Origin: Escherichia coli
Lineage (GTDB): Bacteria; Pseudomonadota; Gammaproteobacteria; Enterobacterales; Enterobacteriaceae
Assembly (NCBI RefSeq): GCF_965641715.1
Contig: NZ_OZ282453.1
Reading direction: 5' to 3' (one strand)
Length of the DNA: 64,000 nucleotides
The notes beneath the pieces were generated by a model, which made no database searches, was not told the DNA's origin, and saw only the letters and a list, made by a program, of their open reading frames with translations. The position numbers were made by a program, and so were the translations under genes. Shown piece by piece: positions 7,408 to 64,000 of the stretch (the first letter of the stretch is position 1; the number at the start of each line of letters is the position of its first letter).

Positions 7408-8358
7408 TTACGTTTTAATAATGTGGGTGCCCGTTTCACCGCGCAGCGCCGCTGGCAGGCATTCCGGCGTGGTGATAATCACTTCTTTACCGCCCTGTTC
7501 CAGGAACGTCAGGCTGGCGATGATTTTTGGCAACATGCTGCCGGGCGGGAAATGTCCTTCCTGCATATAGCGAGTCATGGTGGCAATATCCACCCGATCC
7601 AGCGCCTGCTGCTCGGGTTTGCCAAAATGAATACACACTTTTTCCACCCCGGTGGTGATCACCAGAATGTCGGCGTGAATTTCACGGGCCAGCAGCGCGG
7701 TAGAGAGATCTTTGTCGATAACCGCGTCCACGCTTTGGTAATCCCCCGCTTCAGTACGCACTACCGGAATTCCACCGCCGCCCGCGCCAATTACGACAAA
7801 ACCTTGTTGGATCAGCGCTTTAATGGCAGGTGCTTCGACAATACGTTTCGGTTCCGGCGAGGCGACCACGCGGCGATAGCCCCGCCCGGCATCTTCAACA
7901 AAACACCAGTCAGGGTTTGCCTTTTGTAATTCGTCACGCTGGCTTTCACTGAAGAATGCGCCGATGGGCTTGGTGGGATGGGCAAAACCTGGATCGTTTT
8001 TATCCACTTCCACCTGAGTCACCACGGTGACGGCTTTCTTCTCGCCGTGACGCGCCAGCCGGTTATTCAGCGCCTGTTGGATCAGATAGCCGATGCCGCC
8101 TTGCGTATCTGCCACACAGTTCGCCAGCGGCGTTAAGGGCAGCCCTTCGCGCTCGTGGGCAATCTCCGCACGGCGTAAATCCAGCCCGACCTGCGGCCCG
8201 TTACCGTGGGTCAGCACAATGTCGTAATCGGAAGCCAGCATTTCCAGCACCGTATCGGCGACGGCTTTCACCGCCTCCGCCTGATGCTCAATCGACTGGC
8301 TGGCGTTATCTTTGATAATGCTGTTGCCACCAATGGCAACGACCACAAGCTCTTTCAT
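7408..8358 (-). CDS. yahI: Carbamate kinase-like protein
   Basis: 316 aa; amino-acid kinase fold with N-terminal VVVAIGGNSI motif, matches remembered YahI. Confidence 0.85.
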   Translation of the reverse strand: MKELVVVAIGGNSIIKDNASQSIEHQAEAVKAVADTVLEMLASDYDIVLTHGNGPQVGLDLRRAEIAHEREGLPLTPLANCVADTQGGIGYLIQQALNNRLARHGEKKAVTVVTQVEVDKNDPGFAHPTKPIGAFFSESQRDELQKANPDWCFVEDAGRGYRRVVASPEPKRIVEAPAIKALIQQGFVVIGAGGGGIPVVRTEAGDYQSVDAVIDKDLSTALLAREIHADILVITTGVEKVCIHFGKPEQQALDRVDIATMTRYMQEGHFPPGSMLPKIIASLTFLEQGGKEVIITTPECLPAALRGETGTHIIKT

Positions 8359-8408
8359 GTTGTTATGTCCGCTACAGAGGGTGATGGGGTTATGACCAAC
8401 GCCAGACT

Positions 8409-8953
8409 GCCTGATGCGCTACGCTTATCAGGCCTACAAATTCTCGTGCCACTCGTGGGCCGGATAAGGCGTTCACGCCGCATCCGGCAATGGTGACAAA
8501 TGCCTGATGCGCTACGCTTATCAGGCCTACAAATTCTCGTGCCATTCGTGGGCCGGATAAGGCGTTCACGCCGCATCCGGCAATGGTGACAAATGCCTGA
8601 TGCGCTACGCTTATCAGGCCTACAAATTCTCGTGCCATTCGTGGGCCGGATAAGGCGTTCACGCCGCATCCGGCAATGGTGACAAATGCCTGATGCGCTA
8701 CGCTTATCAGGCCTACAAATTCTTGCGCCACTTGTAGGCCGGATAAGGCGTTCACGCCGCATCCGGCAATGGTGACAAATGCCTGATGCGCTACGCTTAT
8801 CAGGCCTACAAATTCTTGCGCCACTTGTAGGCCGGATAAGGCGTTCACGCCGCATCCGGCAATGGTGACAAATGCCTGATGCGCTACGCTTATCAGGCCT
8901 ACAGATTCTTGCGCCATTCGTAGGCCGGATAAGGCGTTCACGCCGCATCCGGC
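8409..8953. repeat. Tandem REP/BIME array, about six copies of a 93-bp unit
   Basis: unit starts at 8409, 8502, 8595, 8688, 8781 and 8874; each unit carries two imperfect palindromes; copies differ at a few positions. Confidence 0.9.
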
Positions 8954-8966
8954 ATGAACATGTAGG

Positions 8967-10385
8967 TCAGACGCCGTAACGTTCGCACCAGCCAAGAATG
9001 GCTTTCTCGAAGCAGGCAAAAGGTGGATGCACAATGCCCGCGCCAATCATGCCGACGCCCGCATCTTTATGGGCGATGGCGGTGTTGATCACTGGCAGAA
9101 TGCCGCTGCTACCCACGCGGGTGATGTCGATTGCCGACGGCACGCCCATAAAACCAAGCAGCGGAATGGTGACGTTGGGGTTTTCGCCAAGGGTGATTTC
9201 GCGCATCTGACGGGAGAAATCGATAGCCTCTTCCACCGTGCCACCCACCAGCGCGACGATTGCAGGCGCGGTCGCCATGGCAAATCCGCCAATACCGTAG
9301 GTTTCGGTGATGGCACTGTCGCCGATATCCAGCCCCGAATCTTCCGGCTTATAACCGGCAAACATCGGGCCGATCACCTGCTGCGCTGGGCCGGTAAACC
9401 ACTGCCCCGGCAGGCCGCTGACCCGCAGGCCGAACTCGACGCCGTTACGCGCCATGGTGGTAACGACGGTGCTGTATTCGATGCCGTGCGCCGCATCCAT
9501 CGCCGCTTTACACATCGCCATCCACGTCGGGCCGGAGAAGTAATCGCTACTGGCAACAAACTCAAACACTTCGCGCTGTTGCGCGACGGAATAGCCCGCC
9601 TGGATAATCCCCGGCGTCAGCGCCTGAATCAGCAGCGTCGTCCCGGCGTTATTGCGGTTATGGCACTCATCGCCCATATGCAGCGCCTGCGCCAGCATTA
9701 AGCGCAGATCGATTTCGCCGATAATTTTCATCGCATCGCGCAGTATTGGTCCCTGCACATCACGCATCCAGTTCAGGCGGTCAATCACGCTCTGGTCGTT
9801 AGCGCCCATACGCAAAATCTTCGCCATCTGCTCGCTCATGTTGGTATAAGCGATGTTGCCGTAGGTTTTGTTTTTTACGATGTGCATAAACATCGAGGCC
9901 GAGGTAACACCCGCCATCGATCCCACGCAGTCGTGCTCGTGACACGGCGAGAAGGTGATCTCCCCGGAAGCCGCCAGTTCAGCCGCCTCGTCGAGATCTT
10001 TCGCCAGTCCTTCGAACACCAGCGCTCCGGTGACCGCGCCTTTCATCGCGCCGCACATTTTTTCCCAGGTGATCGGCGGCCCGGCGTGAAGAATGGTTTT
10101 CGGCGTCATGCCCGGCACCACGTTAATCGCCTGATCAAAACCAATCAGCACCGGATGCGACTGGATAATGCGCTCCAGCGCCTGCTGGTTAGCGGCGGCG
10201 ATTTTGTCTGCCAGCGGCGAATCGGCAATGTTATCCAGCGCCTGCACCACCTGCATATTGCCCTGCCCCGGCGGCGTCCAGTCGAGTTGAGTCACTTCTA
10301 CATGCTGCTTTTTAAGAAAATCGCTAAACATGGCGATGCCGACGTTAATAACGTTCAATGGTTGGCTAAACAGTGACTGGCTCAT
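8967..10385 (-). CDS. yahG: DUF1116-family protein, YlbE-like
   Basis: 472-aa ORF, matches remembered YahG; 1-nt overlap with yahF. Confidence 0.8.
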   Translation of the reverse strand: MSQSLFSQPLNVINVGIAMFSDFLKKQHVEVTQLDWTPPGQGNMQVVQALDNIADSPLADKIAAANQQALERIIQSHPVLIGFDQAINVVPGMTPKTILHAGPPITWEKMCGAMKGAVTGALVFEGLAKDLDEAAELAASGEITFSPCHEHDCVGSMAGVTSASMFMHIVKNKTYGNIAYTNMSEQMAKILRMGANDQSVIDRLNWMRDVQGPILRDAMKIIGEIDLRLMLAQALHMGDECHNRNNAGTTLLIQALTPGIIQAGYSVAQQREVFEFVASSDYFSGPTWMAMCKAAMDAAHGIEYSTVVTTMARNGVEFGLRVSGLPGQWFTGPAQQVIGPMFAGYKPEDSGLDIGDSAITETYGIGGFAMATAPAIVALVGGTVEEAIDFSRQMREITLGENPNVTIPLLGFMGVPSAIDITRVGSSGILPVINTAIAHKDAGVGMIGAGIVHPPFACFEKAILGWCERYGV

Positions 10386-11932
10386 CAGGCTTCCTCCCCT
10401 TTGCAGATAAATTCACGCGCCAGCAATCCGGTATTGGTGCTGCTGCTCGCCAGAATCACTCCGGCATCAAGCAGCATCTGGCTTTGTTGTTCTAACGATG
10501 GCGTATCAAGATCGGTACCCAGCACATAGGCGAGAATGATCAACTCTCGTCCTTCGGCAGCGGCGATCGCTTTCGCTTCTTTGATCGCCTCGATGGTGGA
10601 GCCGACCGGATCTTCATGCGATCCAAATCCGAGCACAAAATCCATCACGATCACCGCCACTTCTGGATCGCGCGCCTCTTCGAGCAAGCGACTGATGCGG
10701 TTGGTGGGGTCAATCATTGGATGCGGCTTGCCGTTGGTGAAGTCGTCATCGCCAAAGTCGAGGAAGGTGTGTTTGATGCTGCGGTTGATATCTTTCAGGC
10801 GGAATTCCGGATCGGGCTGAATGTTGCTGTAGACATCGCCATGTTTTTCCATCACCGCGAACATGGTTTCGTCGCACAACGTGCCGCCGCAGAACAGGCC
10901 ACGAATGTATTTCTGCTGCGGTTGCAGACGCGCACGCACATCCGCAATCAACGGCTGGTTCAGGGTATGCAGGTCGAGATGTTCTTGTTTCACGCCGGAG
11001 AGCATCACCGCTTTTAGCGCCGCTTCTTTGCTGCCGCGGGCAAACTGTAGCCCCTGCTCATCCACTGGCGTTTCGCCACGACCGAGGAAGCAGACCACCA
11101 CCGGCTTGCGGCAGGCGCGCGCACGTTCCAGCACTTTGCGGGCCACCGCAGGCGCAGGCGGTTTGGAGATCAGCGCAATGATTTCAGTTTGCGGATCGTT
11201 TTCCAGCATCCCGATGGCATCGAGCATCATCAGGCCGCCGATTTTCTCGCTCAGGTCGCGCCCGCCGGTGCCAATCAGTTGCGAAACGCCACCGCCAAAT
11301 TCATGAATGCGGACGCTCAACTCCTGGCTGCCGGTGCCGGATGCGCCAACAATACCGATGTTGCCGCGACGCACGGCGTTACCAAAACAGAGCGACGCGC
11401 CGTTGATAATCGCCGTGCCACAGTCTGGCCCCATCATCAGCAGCCCTTTTTCGTGGGCCAGTTGCTTGAGCGCCAGTTCATCTTCAACTGAGACGTTATC
11501 GGAAAACAGCATCACGTTGAGATCGTTTTGCAGCGCCTGACGCGCTTCGCGAGCGGCAAACAGACCGTTGACCGAAATCACCGCCAGGTTACTTTCCGGG
11601 ATATGCTTTTTGGCGCTGGCAATAGTGGCGTAACGCGCCTCGTGCGAGCCGCTTTGCGCTTTGGTGTTGAACAGTTCTTCAATCTCCACCAGCAACTGCT
11701 CGTTGTCCGCCCCCGATTTACCATTGATGACAATCATCAGGTCGCCGTTTTTCGCCTGCTCCAGCTCCGGCGTCAGCAGTCCTAAATTTTTCAGCACACC
11801 TTTGTTCATTTCGGTCGCCATCGCCACAAATGCCTGCTCGACGCCGTCGAGTTTATTTGCACGCGTGGAGATAGACATCAGCGAGACAGAATCAAAATAG
11901 GTATTCGGTTTAATGACTATTTTAACTGACAT
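10385..11932 (-). CDS. yahF: FdrA-like protein with succinyl-CoA synthetase alpha-type fold
   Basis: 515 aa; CoA-binding/ligase-like glycine-rich segments (GIVGASGTG); matches remembered YahF. Confidence 0.8.
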   Translation of the reverse strand: MSVKIVIKPNTYFDSVSLMSISTRANKLDGVEQAFVAMATEMNKGVLKNLGLLTPELEQAKNGDLMIVINGKSGADNEQLLVEIEELFNTKAQSGSHEARYATIASAKKHIPESNLAVISVNGLFAAREARQALQNDLNVMLFSDNVSVEDELALKQLAHEKGLLMMGPDCGTAIINGASLCFGNAVRRGNIGIVGASGTGSQELSVRIHEFGGGVSQLIGTGGRDLSEKIGGLMMLDAIGMLENDPQTEIIALISKPPAPAVARKVLERARACRKPVVVCFLGRGETPVDEQGLQFARGSKEAALKAVMLSGVKQEHLDLHTLNQPLIADVRARLQPQQKYIRGLFCGGTLCDETMFAVMEKHGDVYSNIQPDPEFRLKDINRSIKHTFLDFGDDDFTNGKPHPMIDPTNRISRLLEEARDPEVAVIVMDFVLGFGSHEDPVGSTIEAIKEAKAIAAAEGRELIILAYVLGTDLDTPSLEQQSQMLLDAGVILASSSTNTGLLAREFICKGEEA

Positions 11933-55742: not shown

Positions 55743-56432
55743 ATGAGCAACCAAGGCGAATACCCCGAAGATAATCGGGTTGGGAAGCACGAGCCGCACG
55801 ATTTTAGTTTGACCCGTCGCGATCTGATTAAAGTGAGCGCCGCAACGGCGGCGACCGCCGTGGTTTATCCTCATTCTACGCTTGCGGCAAGCGTTCCGGC
55901 AGCTACACCCGCGCCTGAGATAATGCCCCTGACACTTAAGGTGAACGGCAAAACCGAGCAGCTTGAAGTGGATACCCGAACCACGCTACTGGACGCTTTG
56001 CGTGAAAATCTGCATTTGATCGGTACCAAGAAAGGTTGCGATCACGGACAGTGCGGAGCCTGTACCGTGCTGGTCAATGGTCGCAGGCTTAATGCCTGCC
56101 TGACGCTGGCAGTCATGCATCAGGGGGCCGAGATCACCACCATTGAAGGACTGGGTTCACCAGATAATCTTCACCCCATGCAGGCGGCCTTTATCAAGCA
56201 TGATGGCTTCCAGTGCGGCTACTGCACCTCCGGGCAAATTTGCTCATCAGTAGCGGTGCTAAAAGAGATTCAGGACGGCATTCCCAGTCACGTCACGGTC
56301 GATTTGGTTTCCCCTCCAGAAAGAACTGCCGATGAGATCCGTGAACGTATGAGCGGCAACATCTGTCGCTGTGGTGCATACGCTAACATCCTTGCCGCCA
56401 TTGAAGACGCTGCGGGGGAGATAAAATCATGA
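55743..56432 (+). CDS. paoA: Periplasmic aldehyde oxidoreductase, 2Fe-2S subunit
   Basis: 229 aa; Tat signal [18 protein letters not shown]; two [2Fe-2S] cysteine motifs ([11 protein letters not shown] and [11 protein letters not shown]). Confidence 0.92.
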
Positions 56433-57385
56433 AGGCGTTTACCTATGAACGAGTGAACACCCCCGCCGAGGCGGCACTTAGCGCTCAGCGCGTACCCGGC
56501 GCAAAATTTATCGCGGGCGGGACCAATCTGCTGGACCTGATGAAGCTGGAAATTGAAACGCCCACCCACCTTATCGATGTGAACGGCCTCGGGCTCGATA
56601 AGATCGAAGTGACCGACGCGGGTGGGCTGCGCATCGGCGCACTGGTACGGAACACCGACCTGGCGGCTCACGAGCGCGTGCGTCGTGATTACGCGGTACT
56701 CTCCCGCGCCCTGCTCGCTGGCGCGTCTGGTCAGTTACGTAATCAGGCAACCACCGCAGGTAATCTGCTCCAGCGCACGCGCTGCCCCTATTTTTACGAC
56801 ACCAATCAGCCCTGCAATAAGCGCCTGCCCGGGAGCGGCTGCGCGGCGCTTGAAGGCTTTAGCCGTCAGCACGCGGTGGTAGGCGTAAGCGAAGCCTGCA
56901 TTGCCACCCATCCGAGCGATATGGCGGTCGCAATGCGGTTGCTGGATGCGGTGGTGGAAACCATCACGCCGGAGGGAAAGACTCGCAGTATCACACTGGC
57001 TGATTTTTATCACCCACCGGGGAAAACGCCGCACATTGAAACCGCCCTGCTTCCCGGTGAGCTTATCGTTGCGGTGACGTTACCTCCGCCGCTCGGCGGA
57101 AAACATATCTACCGTAAAGTGCGCGATCGCGCCTCCTACGCCTTTGCCCTGGTATCGGTCGCGGCGATTATTCAGCCTGACGGCAGCGGGCGCGTCGCGC
57201 TGGGCGGAGTAGCACATAAGCCCTGGCGCATTGAGGCTGCGGATGCTCAGCTATCCCAGGGGGCGCAGGCCGTATATGACGCGCTGTTCGCCAGCGCCCA
57301 TCCCACCGCTGAAAACACCTTTAAACTCCTGTTGGCGAAGCGAACGCTTGCCTCCGTACTGGCTGAAGCGAGGGCACAAGCATGA
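56429..57385 (+). CDS. paoB: Periplasmic aldehyde oxidoreductase, FAD-binding subunit
   Basis: 318 aa; CO-dehydrogenase medium-subunit-like; 4-nt overlap with paoA. Confidence 0.9.
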
Positions 57386-59580
57386 AATTTGATAAACCCG
57401 CAGGGGAAAACCCGATCGATCAGCTGAAGGTTGTCGGTCGTCCCTATGACCGCATCGACGGACCGCTGAAAACTACCGGCACGGCACGCTACGCCTACGA
57501 ATGGTTTGAAGAAGCTCCCAACGCCGCCTATGGCTATATCGTCGGTTCCGCCATTGCCAAAGGACGCCTCACCGCCCTTGATACGGACGCCGCGCAAAAA
57601 GCGCCGGGCGTACTGGCTGTCATTACCGCCAGTAACGCCGGGGCACTCGGCAAAGGCGACAAAAACACCGCCAGGCTGTTAGGCGGTCCCACTATTGAGC
57701 ACTATCATCAGGCCATTGCGCTGGTAGTGGCCGAGACCTTCGAACAGGCGCGAGCGGCGGCCTCGCTGGTGCAGGCGCACTATCGCCGTAATAAAGGAGC
57801 TTACTCCCTGGCGGACGAAAAACAGGCCGTCAGTCAGCCGCCGGAAGACACGCCCGACAAAAACGTCGGTGACTTTGACGGGGCTTTCTCCTCCGCTGCG
57901 GTGAAGATTGATGCTACCTACACGACCCCGGACCAGAGCCATATGGCGATGGAGCCGCATGCCTCGATGGCCGTCTGGGATGGAAATAAGCTTACTCTCT
58001 GGACCTCAAATCAGATGATTGACTGGTGCCGCACCGATCTGGCAAAAACGCTGAAAGTGCCCGTGGAGAATGTGCGTATTATCTCCCCGTATATCGGCGG
58101 AGGGTTTGGCGGCAAGCTGTTCCTGAGAAGCGATGCGCTGCTGGCGGCCCTCGCCGCCCGAGCGGTGAAACGTCCGGTTAAAGTGATGCTCCCCCGCCCC
58201 TCTATTCCCAATAACACCACGCACCGCCCCGCCACCCTTCAGCACTTGCGTATCGGTGCCGACCAGAGCGGGAAAATCACCGCTATCTCACATGAAAGCT
58301 GGTCTGGAAACCTGCCCGGCGGCACGCCGGAAACGGCGGTACAGCAAAGCGAATTACTCTACGCCGGGGCAAACCGTCATACCGGCCTGCGGCTCGCCAC
58401 GCTTGATTTGCCGGAAGGGAACGCCATGCGTGCGCCCGGCGAAGCCCCCGGTCTGATGGCGCTCGAAATCGCGATCGACGAACTGGCGGAAAAAGCGGGC
58501 ATCGATCCCGTCGAGTTTCGCATCCTGAATGACACTCAGGTTGACCCCGCCGACCCGACGCGCCGCTTCTCTCGCCGTCAGCTTATCGAGTGCTTGCGCA
58601 CCGGAGCGGATAAATTTGGTTGGAAGCAGCGCAACGCCACACCCGGACAGGTGCGCGACGGGGAGTGGCTAGTCGGCCACGGCGTCGCGGCGGGCTTTCG
58701 CAATAATCTGCTGGAAAAATCGGGGGCTCGGGTTCACCTCGAACAAAACGGCACCGTTACCGTGGAAACGGACATGACCGACATTGGCACCGGCAGCTAC
58801 ACCATTCTGGCCCAGACGGCAGCGGAAATGCTTGGCGTACCGCTGGAGCAGGTTGCGGTTCACCTCGGCGATTCCAGTTTCCCGGTTTCTGCGGGTTCTG
58901 GTGGACAATGGGGCGCGAATACCTCCACCTCCGGCGTTTACGCCGCCTGTGTGAAGCTTCGCGAAATGATTGCCTCGGCAGTCGGGTTTGATCCTGAGCA
59001 GTCGCAGTTTGCCGACGGCAAGATTACCAACGGTACCCGAAGCGCCACGCTAAATGAGGCCACCGCAGGCGGCAGACTGACAGCGGAAGAGAGTATTGAA
59101 TTCGGAACACTGAGCAAGGAGTACCAGCAGTCGACCTTTGCCGGGCATTTTGTGGAGGTCGGCGTGCATAGCGCGACGGGAGAAGTTCGGGTCCGGCGTA
59201 TGCTCGCTGTGTGTGCTGCAGGACGCATCCTGAATCCGAAAACTGCACGCAGCCAGGTCATTGGCGCAATGACTATGGGCATGGGCGCGGCACTGATGGA
59301 GGAGCTGGCGGTGGATGACCGTTTGGGCTACTTCGTTAATCACGATATGGCGGGGTATGAGGTGCCGGTCCATGCGGATATCCCAAAACAGGAAGTGATT
59401 TTCCTGGATGATACCGACCCCATATCCTCCCCGATGAAGGCCAAAGGTGTCGGTGAGCTGGGCCTGTGCGGCGTGAGCGCGGCTATCGCCAACGCGGTGT
59501 ATAACGCCACCGGTATTCGGGTACGCGATTATCCCATCACTCTGGATAAGCTGCTCGATAAGCTGCCGGATGTGGTTTAA
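57382..59580 (+). CDS. paoC: Periplasmic aldehyde oxidoreductase, molybdopterin subunit
   Basis: 732 aa; xanthine-dehydrogenase-family MoCo-binding large subunit; 4-nt overlap with paoB. Confidence 0.92.
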
Positions 59581-59589
59581 GGAGGAACA

Positions 59590-60546
59590 ATGTCATACCC
59601 GCTTTTTGATAAAGACGAACACTGGCATAAGCCAGAGCAGGCGTTTCTCACCGATGACCACCGGACCATTCTGCGCTTCGCCGTAGAGGCGCTAATGTCC
59701 GGTAAAGGAGCGGTGCTGGTGACGCTGGTGGAGATACACGGCGGCGCGGCGCGCCCGCTCGGGGCGCAGATGGTGGTGCGCGAAGATGGTCGTTACTGCG
59801 GTTTTGTCTCTGGCGGCTGCGTGGAGGCCGCTGCCGCTTTTGAAGCGCTGGAGATGATGGGCTCAGGCCGCGATCGCGAAATTCGCTATGGTGAAGGTTC
59901 GCCGTGGTTTGACATCGTTCTGCCCTGCGGCGGTGGGATCACGCTGACGCTCCATAAACTACGCACGGCACAGCCTCTGCTCGCCGTGCTGAACCGCCTG
60001 GAACAGAGAAAACCGGCGGGTCTGCGCTACGATCCGCAAGCACAATCGCTGGTGTGCCTGCCCACGCAAACCCGGACGGGCTGGAATCTCAATGGCTTTG
60101 AGGTGGGGTTCAGGCCATGCGTCAGGCTGATGATTTACGGACGTTCTCTTGAGGCGCAGGCGACCGCGAGTCTTGCAGCAGCCACAGGCTATGACAGCCA
60201 TATCTTCGATCTTTTTCCGGCCTCAGCCAGCGCTCAGATCGATACCGATACGGCGGTCATTTTGCTGTGCCATGATCTCAACCGGGAGCTGCCAGTGTTG
60301 CAGGCCGCGCGAGAAGCAAAACCCTTTTATCTCGGCGCATTGGGCAGCTATCGAACCCACACGTTACGTCTGCAAAAGCTCCACGAGCTGGGATGGTCCA
60401 GGGAGGAGACAGCGCAAATCCGGGCGCCCGTCGGGATATTCCCCAAAGCCCGGGATGCGCATACTCTGGCACTCTCCGTGCTGGCAGAAGTCGCCTCTGT
60501 ACGTCTCCATCAGGAGGAGGATTCATGCCTGCCCCCGTCGTCCTGA
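59590..60546 (+). CDS. paoD: XdhC-like molybdenum cofactor insertion chaperone
   Basis: 318 aa immediately downstream of paoC. Confidence 0.88.
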   Translation: MSYPLFDKDEHWHKPEQAFLTDDHRTILRFAVEALMSGKGAVLVTLVEIHGGAARPLGAQMVVREDGRYCGFVSGGCVEAAAAFEALEMMGSGRDREIRYGEGSPWFDIVLPCGGGITLTLHKLRTAQPLLAVLNRLEQRKPAGLRYDPQAQSLVCLPTQTRTGWNLNGFEVGFRPCVRLMIYGRSLEAQATASLAAATGYDSHIFDLFPASASAQIDTDTAVILLCHDLNRELPVLQAAREAKPFYLGALGSYRTHTLRLQKLHELGWSREETAQIRAPVGIFPKARDAHTLALSVLAEVASVRLHQEEDSCLPPSS

Positions 60547-60653
60547 TCCTTGCGGCCGGGCGTGGAGAGCGCTTTCTCGCCTCTGGGGGAAATACCCATA
60601 AATTAAGAGAAAAAATCTGCAGTAGCCGTTTTAGAAAATCACCTAAATCGTTT

Positions 60654-60683
60654 AAAAGAGCGCCCAACCCATAGTGGGCGCTC
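60654..60683 (-). terminator. Intrinsic terminator after the MFS transporter gene (minus strand)
   Basis: 9-bp stem gagcgccca/tgggcgctc with 8-nt loop; on the minus strand it is followed by a TTTT run. Confidence 0.55.
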
Positions 60684-60726: not shown

Positions 60727-61920
60727 CTAAAGCGCACCGGCCTTCTGGCGTGCGGTAACAAAGGTCAGTACGCCCGCGCAAAGGAGCAGCACACTACTCA
60801 TGGCAAACGTACTCTGCCAGCCAAGGCGGTCAAACACGATGCCTCCTGCCGTTGATCCAAGGGCGATTGAGAGCTGAATCACCGCGACCATGAGCCCGCC
60901 TCCGGCTTCGGCGTTGTCAGGCAACGTACGCGCAATCCATGTCCACCATCCGGTTGGCGCGGCGGTGGCCAGCATGCCCCAGAGTCCTAACAGCAGCGAG
61001 ACCGTCCAGACGTGATGCCCGGTAAGCATCAGACCGATGGCAATGACGGCCATCAGTCCGGGTATGGCCATCAGCGTGGGGTAGAATTTTCTGTTGAGAA
61101 ATGTCGAAACAACCAGCGTGCCAATAAAACCGGCCACGCCGATAATCAGCAAAATCAACGACAAGCCTAAGGAATTAACCCGTGTCACCGACTCCAGAAA
61201 CGGGCGCACATAGGTGAATAGCGCAAACTGCCCCATGAAAAACAGGCCACAAGCTATCATGCCGACCACAACCATGCGGCGGCTAAATAAGCGGAATACC
61301 GCGCCACATGACGTGTGGCTTTTATTCGCATCCATGCTGGGCAGACTAATGCACTGCCAGATAAAGGCGACAACCGCCATGGGCACCAGGCACAAGAAAG
61401 CGCCTCGCCATCCGACCGTAGCCCCCAGATAGCTTCCCAGCGGCGCGGCCACGACCGTCGCCAGCGCATTACCGGCGTTGAAAATCGCCAGCGCACGCGT
61501 GACCTGATGCTGCGGCACCAGACGAATCGCCGTTGCCGCTGACATCGACCAGAATCCGCCAATGGCCACACCAATCATCGCACGACCGACCATATACATC
61601 AGATAACTGGTAGCCAGCGCAATAATAAGCCCCGATACGGCCATCAGAACCGTCATCCCCAGCAGCAGGAACTTACGATTCATCTTTCCAGCTAGCGTTG
61701 AAAGCGTCAGGCTGGTCAGAACCGCCAGCGCGCCGGAGATAGCAATCCCCTGCCCTGCCAGCCCCTCCGTCACGCCTAAATCGCGGGTAATCGGCGTGAG
61801 CAGGCTGACGGGCATAAATTCAGAAGCAATCAGCACAAACACGCACAGGGTCATGGCAAAAATACCGCCCCAGTATGCGCGCTGATGATGAGGTGATAGT
61901 GTTTGGCTTAGTGTCGACAT
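60727..61920 (-). CDS. MFS transporter (DHA1-like efflux type)
   Basis: 397 aa, about 12 hydrophobic helices; 76 nt downstream of the hydrolase gene on the same strand. Confidence 0.8.
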   Translation of the reverse strand: MSTLSQTLSPHHQRAYWGGIFAMTLCVFVLIASEFMPVSLLTPITRDLGVTEGLAGQGIAISGALAVLTSLTLSTLAGKMNRKFLLLGMTVLMAVSGLIIALATSYLMYMVGRAMIGVAIGGFWSMSAATAIRLVPQHQVTRALAIFNAGNALATVVAAPLGSYLGATVGWRGAFLCLVPMAVVAFIWQCISLPSMDANKSHTSCGAVFRLFSRRMVVVGMIACGLFFMGQFALFTYVRPFLESVTRVNSLGLSLILLIIGVAGFIGTLVVSTFLNRKFYPTLMAIPGLMAVIAIGLMLTGHHVWTVSLLLGLWGMLATAAPTGWWTWIARTLPDNAEAGGGLMVAVIQLSIALGSTAGGIVFDRLGWQSTFAMSSVLLLCAGVLTFVTARQKAGAL

Positions 61921-61995
61921 AGTGAAATTTCACAAAGATCAGGATAAAAGCCACCGGCCATAGACCGGTGGCTTTGCATCAATTCAGGAGAGGTT

Positions 61996-63132
61996 TTATT
62001 TCAGTTTGGCCTGGAAAAATTGTTCGAACTTCGCGAAAGGTATTTTTCCGGCCACGTTATCGTACAGGTCCACGTGATTTGCTCCTGGTACCACCACCAG
62101 CTCTTTGTCGTTACTGCCAACCACCTTGTAAGCATCTTCAGCAAAATAGCGTGAATGCGCTTTCTCACCGGTCACAATCAGCGTCGGGATGGTGATTTCA
62201 CTGGCGTAGCTCAACAGCGGCATATTCATAAATGACAGCGGCATCGTTGCCGTCCACGCCCCGGTAGAGTTAACGGAACGTTCGTGGAAGCCGCGCGGCA
62301 TGCGATAGTAGTCAAAGAACTCTTTCAGTACCGGATGAGGATTTGCCGGCAGCGTTTCTGGCAGAATACGCTCGCCCGCACTGACCTTGCCGTTGCTATC
62401 GACATTAATATCATGACCACCGTGAGCGAACGTTCCGCTCTGCGCATCCTTCCAGCGCTGTTCATTCAGATATTGCAGAACAGCACGACGGTCGGCGGTA
62501 GAATAACGGTCTTCGCCATCCCCCACACCATGGCCCATCGCCCGGCTCATGTCATACATCACGCTGGTAGCAACCGCTTTAACGCGGGTATCCATCGCCA
62601 CGTCGTTCAGCGCCATGCCACCCCAGCCACAAATACCGAGCAGCCCGATACGGTTGCGATCTACCTCTTTTTGCAGCCCTAAGAAATCCACCGCCGCGCT
62701 GAAATCTTCAGTGTTGATATCCGGTGAGGCGACGTTTCGCGGATAGCCGCCGCTTTCCCCGGTGTAAGAAGGATCGAACGCCAGGGTAACAAACCCTCGT
62801 TCCGCCAGCGTCTGCGCATACAAGCCGCTGGATTGCTCTTTCACCGCGCCAAATGGCCCACTGACCGCAATCGCCGCCAGCTTGCGATCGCCACGGTCTT
62901 TAGGCAGGTAAAGATCGCCCACTAAGGTGATGCCATATCGGTTCGGGAACGATACTTTACGGTGATCGACTTTCTGGCTCTCGGCGAACGTTTTATCCCA
63001 TTTATCGGTCATGGACACAGGGGCATTAGGATTGGTTGAATCAGCATAACTCATTGTCGTGACTCCACTTAATGATGCGAAAAGCAGCATGGCCGGCATC
63101 GCGGTTTTTAGCGTTCGGGTGAAGGCTTTCAT
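61996..63132 (-). CDS. Secreted alpha/beta-fold hydrolase with Cys nucleophile, paralogue of 42276..43196
   Basis: start set at MKAFTRTL; signal peptide ending SYADS; shares KEQ-SG-Y, AFD-S, GICGxGG and HxDLYD motifs with the other hydrolase. Confidence 0.75.
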   Translation of the reverse strand: MKAFTRTLKTAMPAMLLFASLSGVTTMSYADSTNPNAPVSMTDKWDKTFAESQKVDHRKVSFPNRYGITLVGDLYLPKDRGDRKLAAIAVSGPFGAVKEQSSGLYAQTLAERGFVTLAFDPSYTGESGGYPRNVASPDINTEDFSAAVDFLGLQKEVDRNRIGLLGICGWGGMALNDVAMDTRVKAVATSVMYDMSRAMGHGVGDGEDRYSTADRRAVLQYLNEQRWKDAQSGTFAHGGHDINVDSNGKVSAGERILPETLPANPHPVLKEFFDYYRMPRGFHERSVNSTGAWTATMPLSFMNMPLLSYASEITIPTLIVTGEKAHSRYFAEDAYKVVGSNDKELVVVPGANHVDLYDNVAGKIPFAKFEQFFQAKLK

Positions 63133-63318
63133 AAAAATCCCCATAAAAAACAACAGAGAGATACAGGTTTCCGACGGACAACGCTGCGGTGCTTTACTTT
63201 GATGGGGTCATTATAGTGAGCAGAATTAGTGCTGATTAGGGGGCGATTAATGCTAAGATTAATACCATATTGTTATAAATTAATGCGAAGATTGCCGGCA
63301 TGAAGGGGGGATGTTTCA

Positions 63319-64000
63319 ATGGCGAAAAGGGAGAACTACAACGAGCTGTACCTGTTTATGCAGGTGGTTCGAGAAGGCAGCTTTACCGCAGCGGCTCAGC
63401 GGCTGGGTCTTGCTCAGTCAGGAGTCAGCCGTTCTGTTCGCGAGCTTGAAGAAAGGCTGGGTGTCCAGCTGCTAGTGCGCACCACGCGTAAACTGTCGCT
63501 GACACAAGCAGGCGAGCAGCTCTACCAGAAGACGGCATCTGGATTTGAAATGTTAGATCTTGGGCTTGCCACACTGGCGCACTATCGAGAGACGCCCTCC
63601 GGCACGGTGCGTATCAATGCCAGCCAGCACGCGATTGATAAATGCCTGCTGCCAAAGCTGGCGGTATTTAAACAGCGATATCCTGATATCCGGCTTGAAC
63701 TGATAAATGAGAGCCGGTTCGTCGATATCATCGAGGAAAGATTCGATGCAGGTGTCCGCCTGGGGCCTGAAGTCGGCCAGGGTATGGTCGCGGTACGCAT
63801 CACGCCCGATATGGAGATGGCAATTGTGGGGACTCCGGAACATTTTCGTCGCTATGGTTTTCCGCAAACTCCGGCGGATTTAAAGGCGCATCCCTGTATC
63901 GCCTATCAGTTTGCCGACGGCAGCGTATACCAGTGGGAACTCAATCAGGATGATAAAAAAATCACTCATCGCCCTGAAGGGCAATGGGCCCTATCCGACA
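63319..64000 (+). CDS. LysR-family transcriptional regulator (3' end beyond window)
   Basis: MAKRENYNELYLFMQVVREGSFTAAAQRLGLAQSGVSRSV HTH; runs off the window end; divergent from hydrolase-MFS. Confidence 0.8.
   Translation, partial: MAKRENYNELYLFMQVVREGSFTAAAQRLGLAQSGVSRSVRELEERLGVQLLVRTTRKLSLTQAGEQLYQKTASGFEMLDLGLATLAHYRETPSGTVRINASQHAIDKCLLPKLAVFKQRYPDIRLELINESRFVDIIEERFDAGVRLGPEVGQGMVAVRITPDMEMAIVGTPEHFRRYGFPQTPADLKAHPCIAYQFADGSVYQWELNQDDKKITHRPEGQWALSD

Follow-up and report, generated by a model that had tools for sequence, protein, structure and literature searches.

Among the described systems closest to the locus analysed here is the PA2218 region of Pseudomonas aeruginosa PAO1. PA2218 is recorded as a "hypothetical protein" with a structure in the PDB (2HDW). 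The neighbouring genes are PA2219, or opdE, annotated as "membrane protein OpdE" (PMC12431658), and PA2220, or oprR, annotated as "probable transcriptional regulator" (PMC3922391). PA2218 is about 58-65% identical to the E. coli hydrolase over residues 19-375 of the latter, shares with it both the G-I-C-G-W-G-G elbow and the histidine motif G-A-x-H-V-D-L-Y-D, and lacks an insertion of approximately 17 residues that the E. coli enzyme carries around residues 240-256. OpdE is presumably an orthologue of the MFS transporter and OprR presumably a LysR-type protein; by this analogy, PA2218-PA2219-PA2220 looks like the same trio. In E. coli K-12, PgrR (YcjZ) and YcjY likewise form a divergent pair of a LysR regulator and a G-x-C-x-G alpha/beta hydrolase, with an intergenic region of 137 bp. 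PgrR is described as a repressor linked to the recycling of peptidoglycan. It binds between ycjY and ycjZ, and ycjY belongs to its regulon (PMC5934670). YcjY is 34% identical to the hydrolase over 316 residues. It has neither a signal peptide nor about 56 of the N-terminal residues and is thus cytoplasmic, whereas the hydrolase studied here is predicted to be exported; ycjY is followed by ymjD-ymjC-mpaA, whereas an MFS gene follows this hydrolase gene. A search for biochemical data on PA2218 and YcjY yielded none.

More distant similarities concern the enzyme or the transporter individually. Among the dienelactone-hydrolase-like alpha/beta hydrolases with a Cys or Ser nucleophile, the lactonase UilS shares with the hydrolase an alpha/beta fold and a nucleophile flanked by small residues. 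It is annotated as a dienelactone hydrolase, degrades acyl-homoserine lactones and is cytoplasmic (PMC11633161), whereas the present hydrolase appears to be exported. The match to the UilS family in NCBIfam is weak (61.8 bits, E = 8e-17, against a cut-off of 400 bits), and the N-terminal half alone aligns. The fungal enzymes DcsB (7D78/7D79) and GrgF (6LZH) are the next structural neighbours after the bacterial proteins that have no assigned function, with Foldseek E-values of about 1e-16 and TM scores of 0.60-0.78; by sequence, they match at E between 4e-9 and 7e-7 with 18-20% identity. Both are cytosolic, use carrier-protein thioesters and offer no genomic analogy to the locus. For the transporter, the best family matches are the DHA1-type pumps NepI, SotB (YdeA) and Cmx.

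The window, a stretch of 64,000 nucleotides of E. coli DNA, contains at positions 60727-64000 a three-gene cassette, comprising genes for a LysR regulator, a predicted exported Cys hydrolase and an efflux-type MFS transporter, next to the paoABCD aldehyde-oxidase genes. All three genes lie where the initial annotation had placed them, and as long ORFs with strong homology they are excluded as chance ORFs. In E. coli the module is flanked by the periplasmic aldehyde oxidoreductase genes paoABCD on one side and an SDR-LysR pair on the other. The regulator gene (63319..64000, plus strand) starts at ATG 63319 and runs past the end of the window, which holds its first 227 codons, all of them open, of a presumed 294. 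The HTH_1 domain (residues 8-66, 9.5e-24) and the LysR_substrate domain (residues 91-225, 4.3e-21, the match being cut by the window end) in Pfam identify the predicted product as an LTTR, which shares 41% identity with PgrR/YcjZ of K-12 from end to end. An interruption beyond position 64000, raised as a possibility in the initial annotation, was looked for in the closest genome, that of strain F2_81 (99.4% identical); there the 227 residues are all identical and the gene is intact at 294 aa.

The hydrolase gene lies on the minus strand at 61996..63132 and encodes a precursor of 378 aa. Its ORF (61996-63153) is open up to a TTG at 63153, and ATG 63132 is most likely the true start: the form conserved across genera is the one of 378 aa, not the 352 aa of the E. 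coli RefSeq records, which begin the protein at M27 and thereby lose the signal peptide. The signal peptide coding region (63043..63132, minus strand) corresponds to residues 1-30, MKAFTRTLKTAMPAMLLFASLSGVTTMSYA|D, with predicted cleavage after SYA. This leader combines a positively charged n-region with a hydrophobic core and the S-Y-A cleavage motif, and its n-, h- and c-regions are conserved in an alignment of 14 Enterobacterales genera. Distant homologues from other phyla have Sec-type or twin-arginine (RRxLLK) leaders, and in the AF2 model residues 1-33 have pLDDT below 50, as expected of a leader. The earlier description of the enzyme as secreted therefore holds as a prediction from the conserved, Sec-type leader, and the mature protein is probably periplasmic.

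Only weak alpha/beta-hydrolase matches were obtained in Pfam. The best PDB match is PA2218 (2HDW, E = 6e-125), and YcjY (5XB6) matches at 4e-43. The AF2 model (pLDDT 81.6, pTM 0.83) retrieves with Foldseek, in order, 2HDW, 5XB6, 7QJM, the DcsB thioesterase and GrgF, with a probability of 1.00 for 2HDW, 5XB6 and many alpha/beta hydrolases, so that the model has the alpha/beta-hydrolase fold. Members of the family share 84-97% identity within Enterobacterales and 50-66% between phyla. The predicted nucleophile is Cys168 (codon 62629..62631, minus strand), the sole cysteine of the protein. In the model its motif, G166-I-C168-G-W-G-G, forms the elbow after strand 157-168 and before helix 169-180, and it aligns with G-I-C-A-G-A-G of YcjY. 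His353, within G-A-N-H-V-D-L-Y-D, follows strand 343-348. C168 and H353 are invariant in alignments of 36 to 80 homologues over many phyla, which, with the predicted nucleophile in a G-x-C-x-G elbow, bears out the earlier naming of the enzyme as a Cys-hydrolase. No single residue stood out as the acid of a catalytic triad: both D194 and D355 show conservation in the family, but YcjY retains neither D194 nor H326, two residues that are invariant in the exported family. The recurrent neighbours of the family (aldo-keto reductase, SDR, cupin, FMN reductase and hexapeptide acyltransferase genes) are of a small-molecule redox/detoxification type.

The transporter gene (60727..61920, minus strand) encodes a protein of 397 aa of DHA1 or NepI-SotB-like efflux type. 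This form aligns end to end with orthologues from other genera, whereas E. coli RefSeq records annotate a shorter one of 375 aa. Pfam MFS_1 covers residues 24-355 (E = 3.8e-37), and a crude hydropathy scan gives about 11-12 hydrophobic segments, consistent with an MFS_1 fold with 12 predicted transmembrane segments. The top NCBIfam matches are the purine ribonucleoside efflux pump NepI (295 bits, cut-off 584), sugar efflux (175, cut-off 401) and Cmx/CmrA (136, cut-off 400), and the best PDB match is the sugar efflux transporter 6KKK (2e-21). The protein is thus related to exporters but, with scores below every cut-off, belongs to no named equivalog (NepI, SotB or Cmx). Residues 13-388 align to positions 15-389 of the 396-position NepI profile, and a score of about half the NepI cut-off marks the protein as a distinct subfamily. 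Strict and relaxed regular expressions for antiporter motif C (G-x8-G-x3-G-P-x2-G-G, TM5) gave 0 matches in the protein; on visual inspection, the stretch A-A-P-L-G-S-Y-L-G around residues 158-166 looks like a degenerate form of motif C. The initial annotation had described hydrolysis plus transport. The characterised relatives of the transporter are all exporters, so export combined with periplasmic hydrolysis is more likely than hydrolysis combined with uptake.

Inducible control, also proposed earlier, is supported by a conserved LysR-type T-N11-A box upstream of the hydrolase promoter. The predicted promoter (63210..63238, minus strand) consists of a -35-like TAATCA at 63233-63238, a 17-nt spacer and a -10 TATAAT at 63210-63215, and the stretch CTAATCAGCAC...CTATAATG is conserved in an alignment of 10 Enterobacterales genera. 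The -35 element matches the consensus at only 3/6 positions, so the consensus scan missed it. A poor -35 is usual for activator-dependent promoters, and 63210-63238 is taken as the probable hydrolase promoter. The T-N11-A box, ATAACAATATGGTAT, is an imperfect dyad at 63262..63276, with no strand assigned. Its centre is about 66 nt upstream of the transcription start predicted from TATAAT, in keeping with the position near -65 at which LTTRs canonically bind. Across 10 Enterobacterales genera the core, TTATAACAATnTGnTAT, shows little or no variation, in contrast to its diverging flanks, and the box overlaps TATAAA, a candidate -10 of the lysR promoter. It is therefore the predicted LysR site for the divergent hydrolase promoter.

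The hydrolase and MFS genes had been regarded as a two-gene unit with a gap of 76 nt. They are codirectional, with the MFS gene second, but the spacer measures 75 nt and is interrupted by a strong terminator-like hairpin (61947..61975, minus strand), AAAGCCACCGG / UCUAUGG / CCGGUGGCUUU, followed by UAUCCUGAUCUUU. The spacer folds with a dG of -28.1 kcal/mol (z = -5.69), a value reached by 0/200 shuffles, and this hairpin occurs once within the window. Hairpins differing in sequence, often with a U-run, lie at the same position in Kluyvera, Serratia, Enterobacter, Lelliottia, Hafnia and Psychrobacter. The pair is thus, as judged from these predicted structures, not a plain, terminator-free operon. 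A consensus scan of the 75-nt spacer found no promoter-like site, so read-through of the hairpin is the most likely source of MFS expression. A further terminator-like hairpin follows the MFS gene (60654..60683, minus strand), with GAGCGCCCA / 8-nt loop / UGGGCGCUC and then UUUU. Its 9-bp G+C-rich stem lies 43 nt past the stop codon and folds with a dG of -18.3 kcal/mol (z = -2.7 against mononucleotide shuffles), which makes the earlier suggestion that the transporter gene has its own terminator plausible. The scan did not flag it because just 4 U follow the stem, fewer than its T-run rule demands. Its sequence is peculiar to the junction in E. coli, with no conservation in other genera.

The complete trio is present in 912 of 5426 complete E. 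coli genomes, or about one in six, including O157:H7 and E. coli C. The arrangement noted earlier, with the LysR gene divergent from hydrolase and then MFS, is kept across gammaproteobacterial orders, in one betaproteobacterium and on plasmids; it was found in Kluyvera, Serratia, Phytobacter, Enterobacter, Lelliottia, Hafnia, Aeromonas, Psychrobacter and Vogesella. In sphingomonads, Devosia and Pseudomonas guariconensis, the MFS gene precedes the hydrolase gene, again with a LysR gene. Among 80 hydrolase loci, MFS orthologues with 44-91% identity adjoin the hydrolase in 23-24, both the MFS and a LysR gene lie within 3 kb of it in 19, and in three others an AraC_N regulator accompanies the same MFS. 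No such MFS neighbour is present in 56 of the 80, which indicates that the transporter is not obligatory for enzyme function. The trio also occurs as a unit on plasmids of Klebsiella, Salmonella, Kosakonia and Pantoea, the Salmonella plasmid copy adjoining a Tn3-family transposase and a recombinase gene, and a second copy of the module, 78% identical, lies on an E. coli island. The persistence of this layout across orders and on plasmids supports a self-contained module, as had been proposed, and a mobile one.

Synteny comparison confirmed the suggestion that the module may be missing from K-12, where paoD is followed by 55 nt, yagP and then the end of CP4-6 with intF. The loss is explained by a 6.1-kb deletion between two CATAA microhomologies, which took the module and four further genes. 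The gene yagP, described in the initial annotation as a LysR-type pseudogene next to paoD, does adjoin paoD and is LysR-derived, but its origin is a second LysR gene and not that of the module. It is a chimera in which a short MocA-like relic that follows paoD (23-25 codons, overlapping the end of paoD) is joined in frame to the C-terminus of this second LysR gene, which lies 3 kb further on and is 98% identical over residues 187-299; the view of yagP as a broken copy of the module's own regulator gene was accordingly rejected. The anatomy of the cassette is well supported, comprising its genes and their apparent intactness, export signal, catalytic motif, conserved synteny, conserved operator and promoter, conserved hairpin, mobility and absence from K-12 through deletion.

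The function of the module is tentatively read as inducible detoxification by export and periplasmic hydrolysis, an explanation that falls somewhat short of probable. It draws on the exporter-type relatives of the transporter (NepI, sugar efflux, Cmx) and the redox/detoxification-type neighbours of the hydrolase. It is weakened by the NCBIfam scores of the transporter, far under every equivalog cut-off, by the 56 of 80 loci in which the hydrolase has no MFS neighbour, and by the structures PA2218 (2HDW) and YcjY (5XB6), which have no assigned function. The opposite direction of transport would give a catabolic or scavenging system, in which the periplasmic hydrolase frees a usable product from a membrane-impermeant ester or amide, the MFS protein imports it and LysR responds to it by inducing the genes. 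LysR-activated divergent catabolic operons are common, the hydrolase is periplasmic by its predicted leader, and the direction of an MFS protein cannot be read from its sequence. The weak MFS matches do include symporters (sialate, aromatic acid and galactonate families), but these reach at most 43 bits, far behind the exporters, whose lead is matched by a sugar efflux transporter as best PDB hit. No downstream catabolic enzymes accompany the module on plasmids or islands, and scavenging is regarded as unlikely. The hairpin between the two genes, which could mean separate MFS expression, is also the starting point for regarding hydrolase and MFS as mere neighbours, with a terminator splitting unrelated units and LysR-hydrolase alone as the functional one. 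The hairpin with its U-run is strong and conserved, many LysR-hydrolase loci have no MFS gene (for example L007, L009, L010, and Leclercia, Enterobacter and Pantoea plasmids), and none accompanies the PgrR-YcjY pair of K-12. On the other hand, MFS orthologues of 50-64% identity adjoin the hydrolase across classes, even with inverted gene order, and the hairpin lies about 29 nt from the MFS start in a spacer with no promoter-like site, which implies read-through expression; a chance association is thus quite improbable.

Two other readings assign the enzyme a different chemistry. L,D-transpeptidases are known single-Cys periplasmic enzymes acting on murein, and by analogy with PgrR-YcjY the exported paralogue might have as its periplasmic substrate an acyl or peptide compound derived from murein or the envelope. 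Both members of the pair have a paralogue in the K-12 pair, the regulator in PgrR (41%) and the enzyme in YcjY (34%). PgrR is a repressor of ycjY-ymjDC-mpaA, genes connected with the recycling of murein peptides. The regulon of PgrR includes ycjY-...-mpaA (PMC5934670). One Klebsiella pneumoniae record in the plasmid collection, moreover, has the module beside an mppA-like peptide ABC-transporter binding-protein gene, mpaA and ycjG, as in the ycjY-pgrR neighbourhood of K-12. Yet YcjY itself has no demonstrated activity, the compartments of the two enzymes differ, since YcjY is missing the leader and roughly the first 56 residues, the genes that recur nearby in other loci are of redox/xenobiotic type and not murein genes, and an accessory, mobile module would be unusual for envelope housekeeping. 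This role is improbable, if marginally less so than a chance association of neighbours. The structural neighbours lead instead to an acyltransferase or thioester-offloading enzyme that would modify or release an MFS-exported compound in a small biosynthetic or secretion unit. The nearest characterised structures after PA2218 and YcjY are indeed the fungal polyketide thioesterase DcsB and the chain-fusing GrgF (PMC8902786), enzymes of acyl transfer and offloading and not degradative hydrolases, which also tells against detoxification; G-x-C-x-G is likewise the PHA-synthase-type box, noted for YcjY (PMC3709699). Identity to DcsB and GrgF is just that given above, however, the predicted periplasmic location is one where acyl-CoA and acyl-carrier-protein donors are absent, and no biosynthetic genes are linked, which leaves this reading the least probable of all.

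For the preferred detoxification reading, we infer the direction of transport, the inducer, the substrate class, the detoxifying role and the attenuated MFS expression as follows. LysR would bind the T-N11-A box at about -65 and repress its own gene and, upon binding a small cytoplasmic ligand, would activate the TATAAT hydrolase promoter with its weak -35. The intercistronic hairpin, either a leaky terminator or an RNA-stabilising element, would end or stabilise most transcripts, giving much hydrolase and little transporter. The MFS exporter would carry a compound of ester, lactone or thioester type out of the cytoplasm into the periplasm, where the exported Cys168/His353 hydrolase would cleave it via an acyl-thioester intermediate and so prevent its re-entry. 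For E. coli, the cassette is an apparently intact, horizontally mobile accessory unit, an ordinary and already annotated gene cluster, which may serve as such an inducible detoxification system.

The MFS transporter gene (60727-61920, 397 aa; Pfam MFS_1, 3.8e-37) and the alpha/beta hydrolase ORF (61996-63153; weak alpha/beta-hydrolase Pfam families only) lie on the minus strand, separated by a 75-nt spacer in the window. The divergent LysR-family gene begins on the plus strand at ATG 63319 and stays open for 227 codons to the window end, with matches to Pfam HTH_1 and LysR_substrate. The upstream neighbour of this trio is paoABCD (55743-60546, plus strand). Because ORF positions and Pfam profile matches agree, the coordinates and gene order of the initial annotation are right; its finding is real and its interpretation essentially right. 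The anatomy of the module is well supported.

The choice of hydrolase start bears on its predicted location. In an alignment of orthologues across Enterobacterales genera, the 378-aa proteins begin at the position matching ATG 63132 and share the leader MxxFTRKLTAAMPAMLLCASLSGVTTMSYA|D. Sec-type or twin-arginine leaders are also found in distant homologues from Bacteroidota, Melainabacteria, Helicobacter, alphaproteobacteria and other groups, and together these leaders argue for an exported family. TTG 63153 was rejected as the start, given the position of the orthologue starts and the GGGGA Shine-Dalgarno sequence preceding the ATG. The RefSeq (PGAP) records of E. coli O157:H7 and of F2_81, the closest genome, place the hydrolase start at M27, giving 352 aa without a signal peptide, and the transporter start at M23 (375 aa); in F2_81 these short forms occupy 9450-10508 and 8181-9308 of the extracted locus (L001). 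Records of E. coli CPF6 and of other genera carry the 378-aa hydrolase and the 397-aa transporter, the forms conserved across genera. The M27 start was rejected because the 26 codons before it are conserved as a signal peptide, and the RefSeq start is regarded as wrong, 26 codons late. This late start conceals the signal peptide, so that what is predicted to be a periplasmic enzyme appears cytoplasmic. A lipoprotein was also considered and rejected: the L-L-C-A-S of many orthologues is no canonical lipobox, and the window protein has F there.

The description of the enzyme as a secreted Cys-hydrolase is borne out at the sequence level by its leader and by its predicted catalytic residues. G-I-C168-G-W-G-G forms the nucleophile elbow; the protein has no cysteine other than C168, and both C168 and H353 are invariant across 80 homologues. 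In the AlphaFold model (pLDDT 81.6), C168 lies between strand 157-168 and helix 169-180, and H353 follows the last core strand. Homologues in Enterobacterales (Serratia, Klebsiella, Kluyvera, Buttiauxella, Citrobacter, Yersinia, Dickeya and others) are 84-97% identical and nearly all 378 aa long. Identity is still 50-66% between Enterobacterales and Bacteroidota, Melainabacteria, Campylobacterota, Elusimicrobia and Negativicutes, with approximately 40-70 invariant residues in the family. Among solved structures, the nearest is that of P. aeruginosa PA2218 (2HDW, E = 6e-125), deposited as a "hypothetical protein", followed by E. coli K-12 YcjY (5XB6, 4e-43). A literature search on PA2218, YcjY, yagP and GrgF returned almost nothing functional, and nothing functional for PA2218 or YcjY.

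Regulatory signals were sought by aligning the 186-nt LysR-hydrolase intergenic region with its equivalents from nine other Enterobacterales genera. Amid diverged flanks, this ten-genus alignment retains a conserved core, TTATAACAATnTGnTAT ... CTAATCAGCAC - N - CTATAATG. Part of the core is ATAACAATATGGTAT at 63262-63276, an imperfect T-N11-A dyad centred approximately 66 nt upstream of the predicted hydrolase transcription start, which is the position of a canonical LTTR recognition site. The predicted -10 element of the hydrolase (TATAAT, 63210-63215, minus strand) is preceded 17 nt upstream by a poor -35 element (TAATCA). From their conservation, 63262-63276 is a candidate LTTR site and 63210-63215 a predicted promoter. 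The dyad also overlaps TATAAA, a possible -10 element for the lysR promoter, an arrangement that would fit LysR autorepression.

Two hairpins may shape the transcript. The first, at 60654-60683 after the MFS stop codon, has a 9-bp G+C-rich stem followed by UUUU (dG -18.3, z = -2.7) and corresponds to the separate terminator initially ascribed to the transporter. The second, which had escaped notice, is much stronger and lies in the hydrolase-MFS spacer at 61947-61975, ahead of a U-rich tract. The 75-nt spacer has dG -28.1 and z = -5.69, and none of 200 shuffles folds as well. Only approximately 29 nt separate this hairpin from the MFS start, and the consensus scan found no promoter-like site in the spacer. 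A hairpin of differing sequence, mostly with a U-run, occupies the same position in Kluyvera, Serratia, Enterobacter, Lelliottia, Hafnia and Psychrobacter. A repeated REP-like element was rejected for E. coli given a single occurrence in the window; the Phytobacter counterpart does look REP-like. The simplest interpretation is that the spacer hairpin acts as a leaky terminator or 3'-end stabiliser, which would give a high hydrolase:transporter ratio. The consensus promoter and terminator scan missed the promoter with its weak -35, the terminator with four U residues and the spacer hairpin, where part of the U-run is taken up by the stem; the promoter and both hairpins are based on folding and cross-genus conservation instead.

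Conservation of the trio was assessed by a hydrolase scan using one genome per species, with the 80 best loci retained. LysR divergent from hydrolase-then-MFS occurs in Kluyvera, Serratia, Phytobacter, Enterobacter, Lelliottia, Hafnia, Aeromonas, Psychrobacter and Vogesella, and the inverted order MFS-then-hydrolase with a LysR gene is found in sphingomonads, Devosia and Pseudomonas guariconensis. Complete trios are also present in plasmid records of Klebsiella pneumoniae, Kosakonia and Pantoea. The trio of a Salmonella IncFIB plasmid (L087, 1026-8644) directly adjoins genes for a recombinase and a Tn3-family transposase, and its LysR and hydrolase genes are separated by an additional small gene of the YdgH/BhsA/McbA-like (DUF1471) type. 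E. coli CPF6 has, on an island, a second module copy that is approximately 78% identical (L004, 4631-8192). The recurring arrangement and the plasmid and island copies argue that the trio is a conserved, mobile unit, and the self-contained module proposed at the outset does recur across genera, on plasmids and on an island. The island copy neighbours a YeeP-like GTPase, Ag43, DUF932 and antirestriction genes, and approximately 27 E. coli records carry only the diverged (approximately 78%) version.

Other neighbours of the hydrolase recur among the 80 best loci: a cyclophilin-like PF18050 protein (20 loci), a hexapeptide acyltransferase (17), a cupin (12) and, at fewer loci, aldo-keto reductases, SDRs and an FMN reductase. 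The cyclophilin-like family 2 protein (PF18050, 9.5e-29; approximately 165 aa) is often encoded immediately downstream of the hydrolase or the MFS gene, as at L016, L018, L019, L022, L028, L031, L045, L075, L077 and L078, and a representative has a twin-arginine-like leader. This protein may be a fourth module component in many taxa; no PF18050 gene was found in the window or in the F2_81 locus.

Within E. coli, paoD is present in 3597 of the 5426 complete genomes and the full module in 912, including O157:H7, E. coli C and the best match, F2_81 (99.4%). In approximately 2000 genomes the match stops 55 nt past paoD and is followed by a "LysR substrate-binding domain" fragment, which is the K-12 state. 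Neither junction occurs in a further group of roughly 600 pao-positive genomes. In F2_81 the module LysR ORF extends 67 codons past the part visible in the window, to ...VIDTLKI-stop. After the module, F2_81 and O157:H7 continue with a ykgR fragment, a small hypothetical gene, an SDR gene, a second LysR gene and, beyond it, integrase or prophage-like genes; this distal part is complete in only 379 genomes. The ykgR fragment, just beyond the right end of the window, lies directly after the module LysR gene and lacks its N-terminus (L001 11888-11956; O157:H7 locus L003 11885-11953), the intact ykgR locus being far away. Past it the region is highly variable, which indicates an integration hotspot: it has the SDR-LysR pair and integrase fragments, with AbiE toxin-antitoxin genes and a reverse transcriptase gene in F2_81, and in O157:H7 prophage genes of the P4-like type.

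The module was expected to be missing in K-12, and the synteny comparison with F2_81 explains how. Homology extends to 55 nt past the paoD stop and resumes in the second LysR gene, with a 5-nt overlap. The K-12 junction is CCCATAA|G TGTATC, and its parents are CCCATAAA (window) and ATCATAAG (second LysR gene). The alignment and the junction point to a deletion of approximately 6.13 kb between CATAA microhomologies. The sequence absent from K-12 covers the MFS, hydrolase and module LysR genes, the ykgR fragment, the hypothetical gene, the SDR gene and 186 codons of the second LysR gene, which is intact in F2_81 (L001 13625-14524) and also in O157:H7.

The same comparison bears on yagP (K-12 locus L002, 11382-11792), which had been implied to be the pseudogene of the module LysR. 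This identity is not borne out: YagP (136 aa) matches residues 187-299 of the second LysR protein at 98% identity but the module LysR at only 28%, and K-12 homology jumps into the second LysR gene. A remnant of the module regulator was rejected on these grounds. The first 23-25 residues of YagP come from an ORF whose ATG precedes the paoD stop by 21 nt. In the window this ORF (60526-60606, plus strand) overlaps the paoD stop (60544-60546), encodes MPAPVVLILAAGRGERFLASGGNTHKL... and then decays. The 49-aa ORF gave no Pfam match because it is too short, and was identified through tblastn against the plasmid collection, where all 15 matches outside E. coli are N-termini of "NTP transferase / nucleotidyltransferase" genes. 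In one example from Pantoea dispersa, a 194-aa gene beside a molybdopterin enzyme, identity to the ORF is 59% over 27 aa. The ORF looks like what is left of a gene for a MocA-like molybdenum-cofactor cytidylyltransferase whose translation was formerly coupled to that of paoD. The yagP gene is an in-frame deletion chimera that joins this MocA-like relic, at His-Lys, to the part of the second LysR gene encoding residues 187-299. The CP4-6 end (297205) and intF lie just past yagP in K-12.

In the best-supported model, the module would work as follows. A cytoplasmic ligand, together with LysR, would activate the gene of the periplasmic Cys/His hydrolase, and read-through past the spacer hairpin would yield a smaller amount of a DHA1-type exporter. 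The hydrolase would then cleave, in the periplasm, the ester, lactone or thioester-type compound brought there by the exporter. As a whole, this chain of LysR-activated export plus periplasmic hydrolysis falls a little short of an even chance; transport direction, substrate class and a detoxification role are inferred. One rival is a catabolic uptake module. The transporter is a DHA1-like MFS protein whose best NCBIfam matches are all efflux pumps (NepI 295 bits, sugar efflux transporter 175, Cmx/CmrA 136), with scores far under the equivalog cut-offs. Its top match in the PDB is a sugar efflux transporter, and the protein is more likely to export than to import. The enzyme might alternatively act as an acyltransferase. 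Foldseek ranks 2HDW and 5XB6 at the top, followed by a Chloroflexus hydrolase, the fungal thioesterase DcsB and the chain-fusing GrgF, with PET hydrolases and lipases after GrgF.

An envelope or peptidoglycan-related role, like that of PgrR-YcjY, is suggested by the closest K-12 relatives. In this paralogous pair pgrR (ycjZ) is divergent from ycjY; PgrR is 41% identical to the module LysR over its full length and YcjY 34% identical to the hydrolase, and thus regulator and enzyme appear to have diverged together. In PMC5934670, ycjY-...-mpaA is listed in the regulon of PgrR, and PgrR binds the ycjY/ycjZ intergenic region. Unlike the module hydrolase, YcjY lacks a leader, and ycjY is followed by ymjD-ymjC-mpaA, with no MFS gene. 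In a Klebsiella pneumoniae record (L086, 4927-13181) the module lies beside an mppA-like peptide ABC-transporter substrate-binding-protein gene, mpaA and ycjG, and the equivalent K-12 neighbourhood (L088, 4931-10001) holds the pgrR-ycjY pair, so that one version, exported or cytoplasmic, may stand in for the other at a single locus. In the remaining rival, the two units are simply neighbours. Of the 80 best loci, 36 have a LysR gene within 3 kb of the hydrolase, 23 the MFS orthologue and 19 both, and at three loci the MFS gene is paired with an AraC_N regulator instead of LysR; in most phyla the hydrolase would function without the transporter. A candidate for the same trio is found in PAO1, where PA2218 is followed by PA2219 (opdE, a membrane protein; PMC12431658) and PA2220 (oprR, a probable regulator; PMC3922391); judged by gene descriptions, this looks like the same arrangement.

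Conservation this strong in a periplasmic accessory hydrolase would be consistent with a single ubiquitous substrate of defined chemistry; a common lactone, ester or thioester toxin from plants, the diet or microbes is one example. That the hydrolase and a dedicated exporter, with a periplasmic PF18050 protein in many taxa, form a previously undescribed plasmid- and island-borne "export-and-destroy" resistance system for one ubiquitous substrate is a speculative and rather improbable extension of this idea.

For E. coli, the module is routine accessory-genome content, a cluster of familiar design whose annotation already exists in over 900 complete genomes; the crystal structure of a close homologue of its hydrolase dates from 2006. 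One K-12 oddity is neatly explained: yagP is an in-frame deletion chimera and not a decayed module regulator. The module is also mobile and associated with pathogens (O157:H7, O55:H7, Klebsiella and Salmonella plasmids), and its regulator and enzyme are jointly paralogous to the little-understood PgrR-YcjY pair of K-12. Conservation of the hydrolase family is well above what is usual for accessory hydrolases and is the one feature that might reward work. If found, the substrate would annotate thousands of genes at once and might expose a transferable resistance or niche-adaptation trait.
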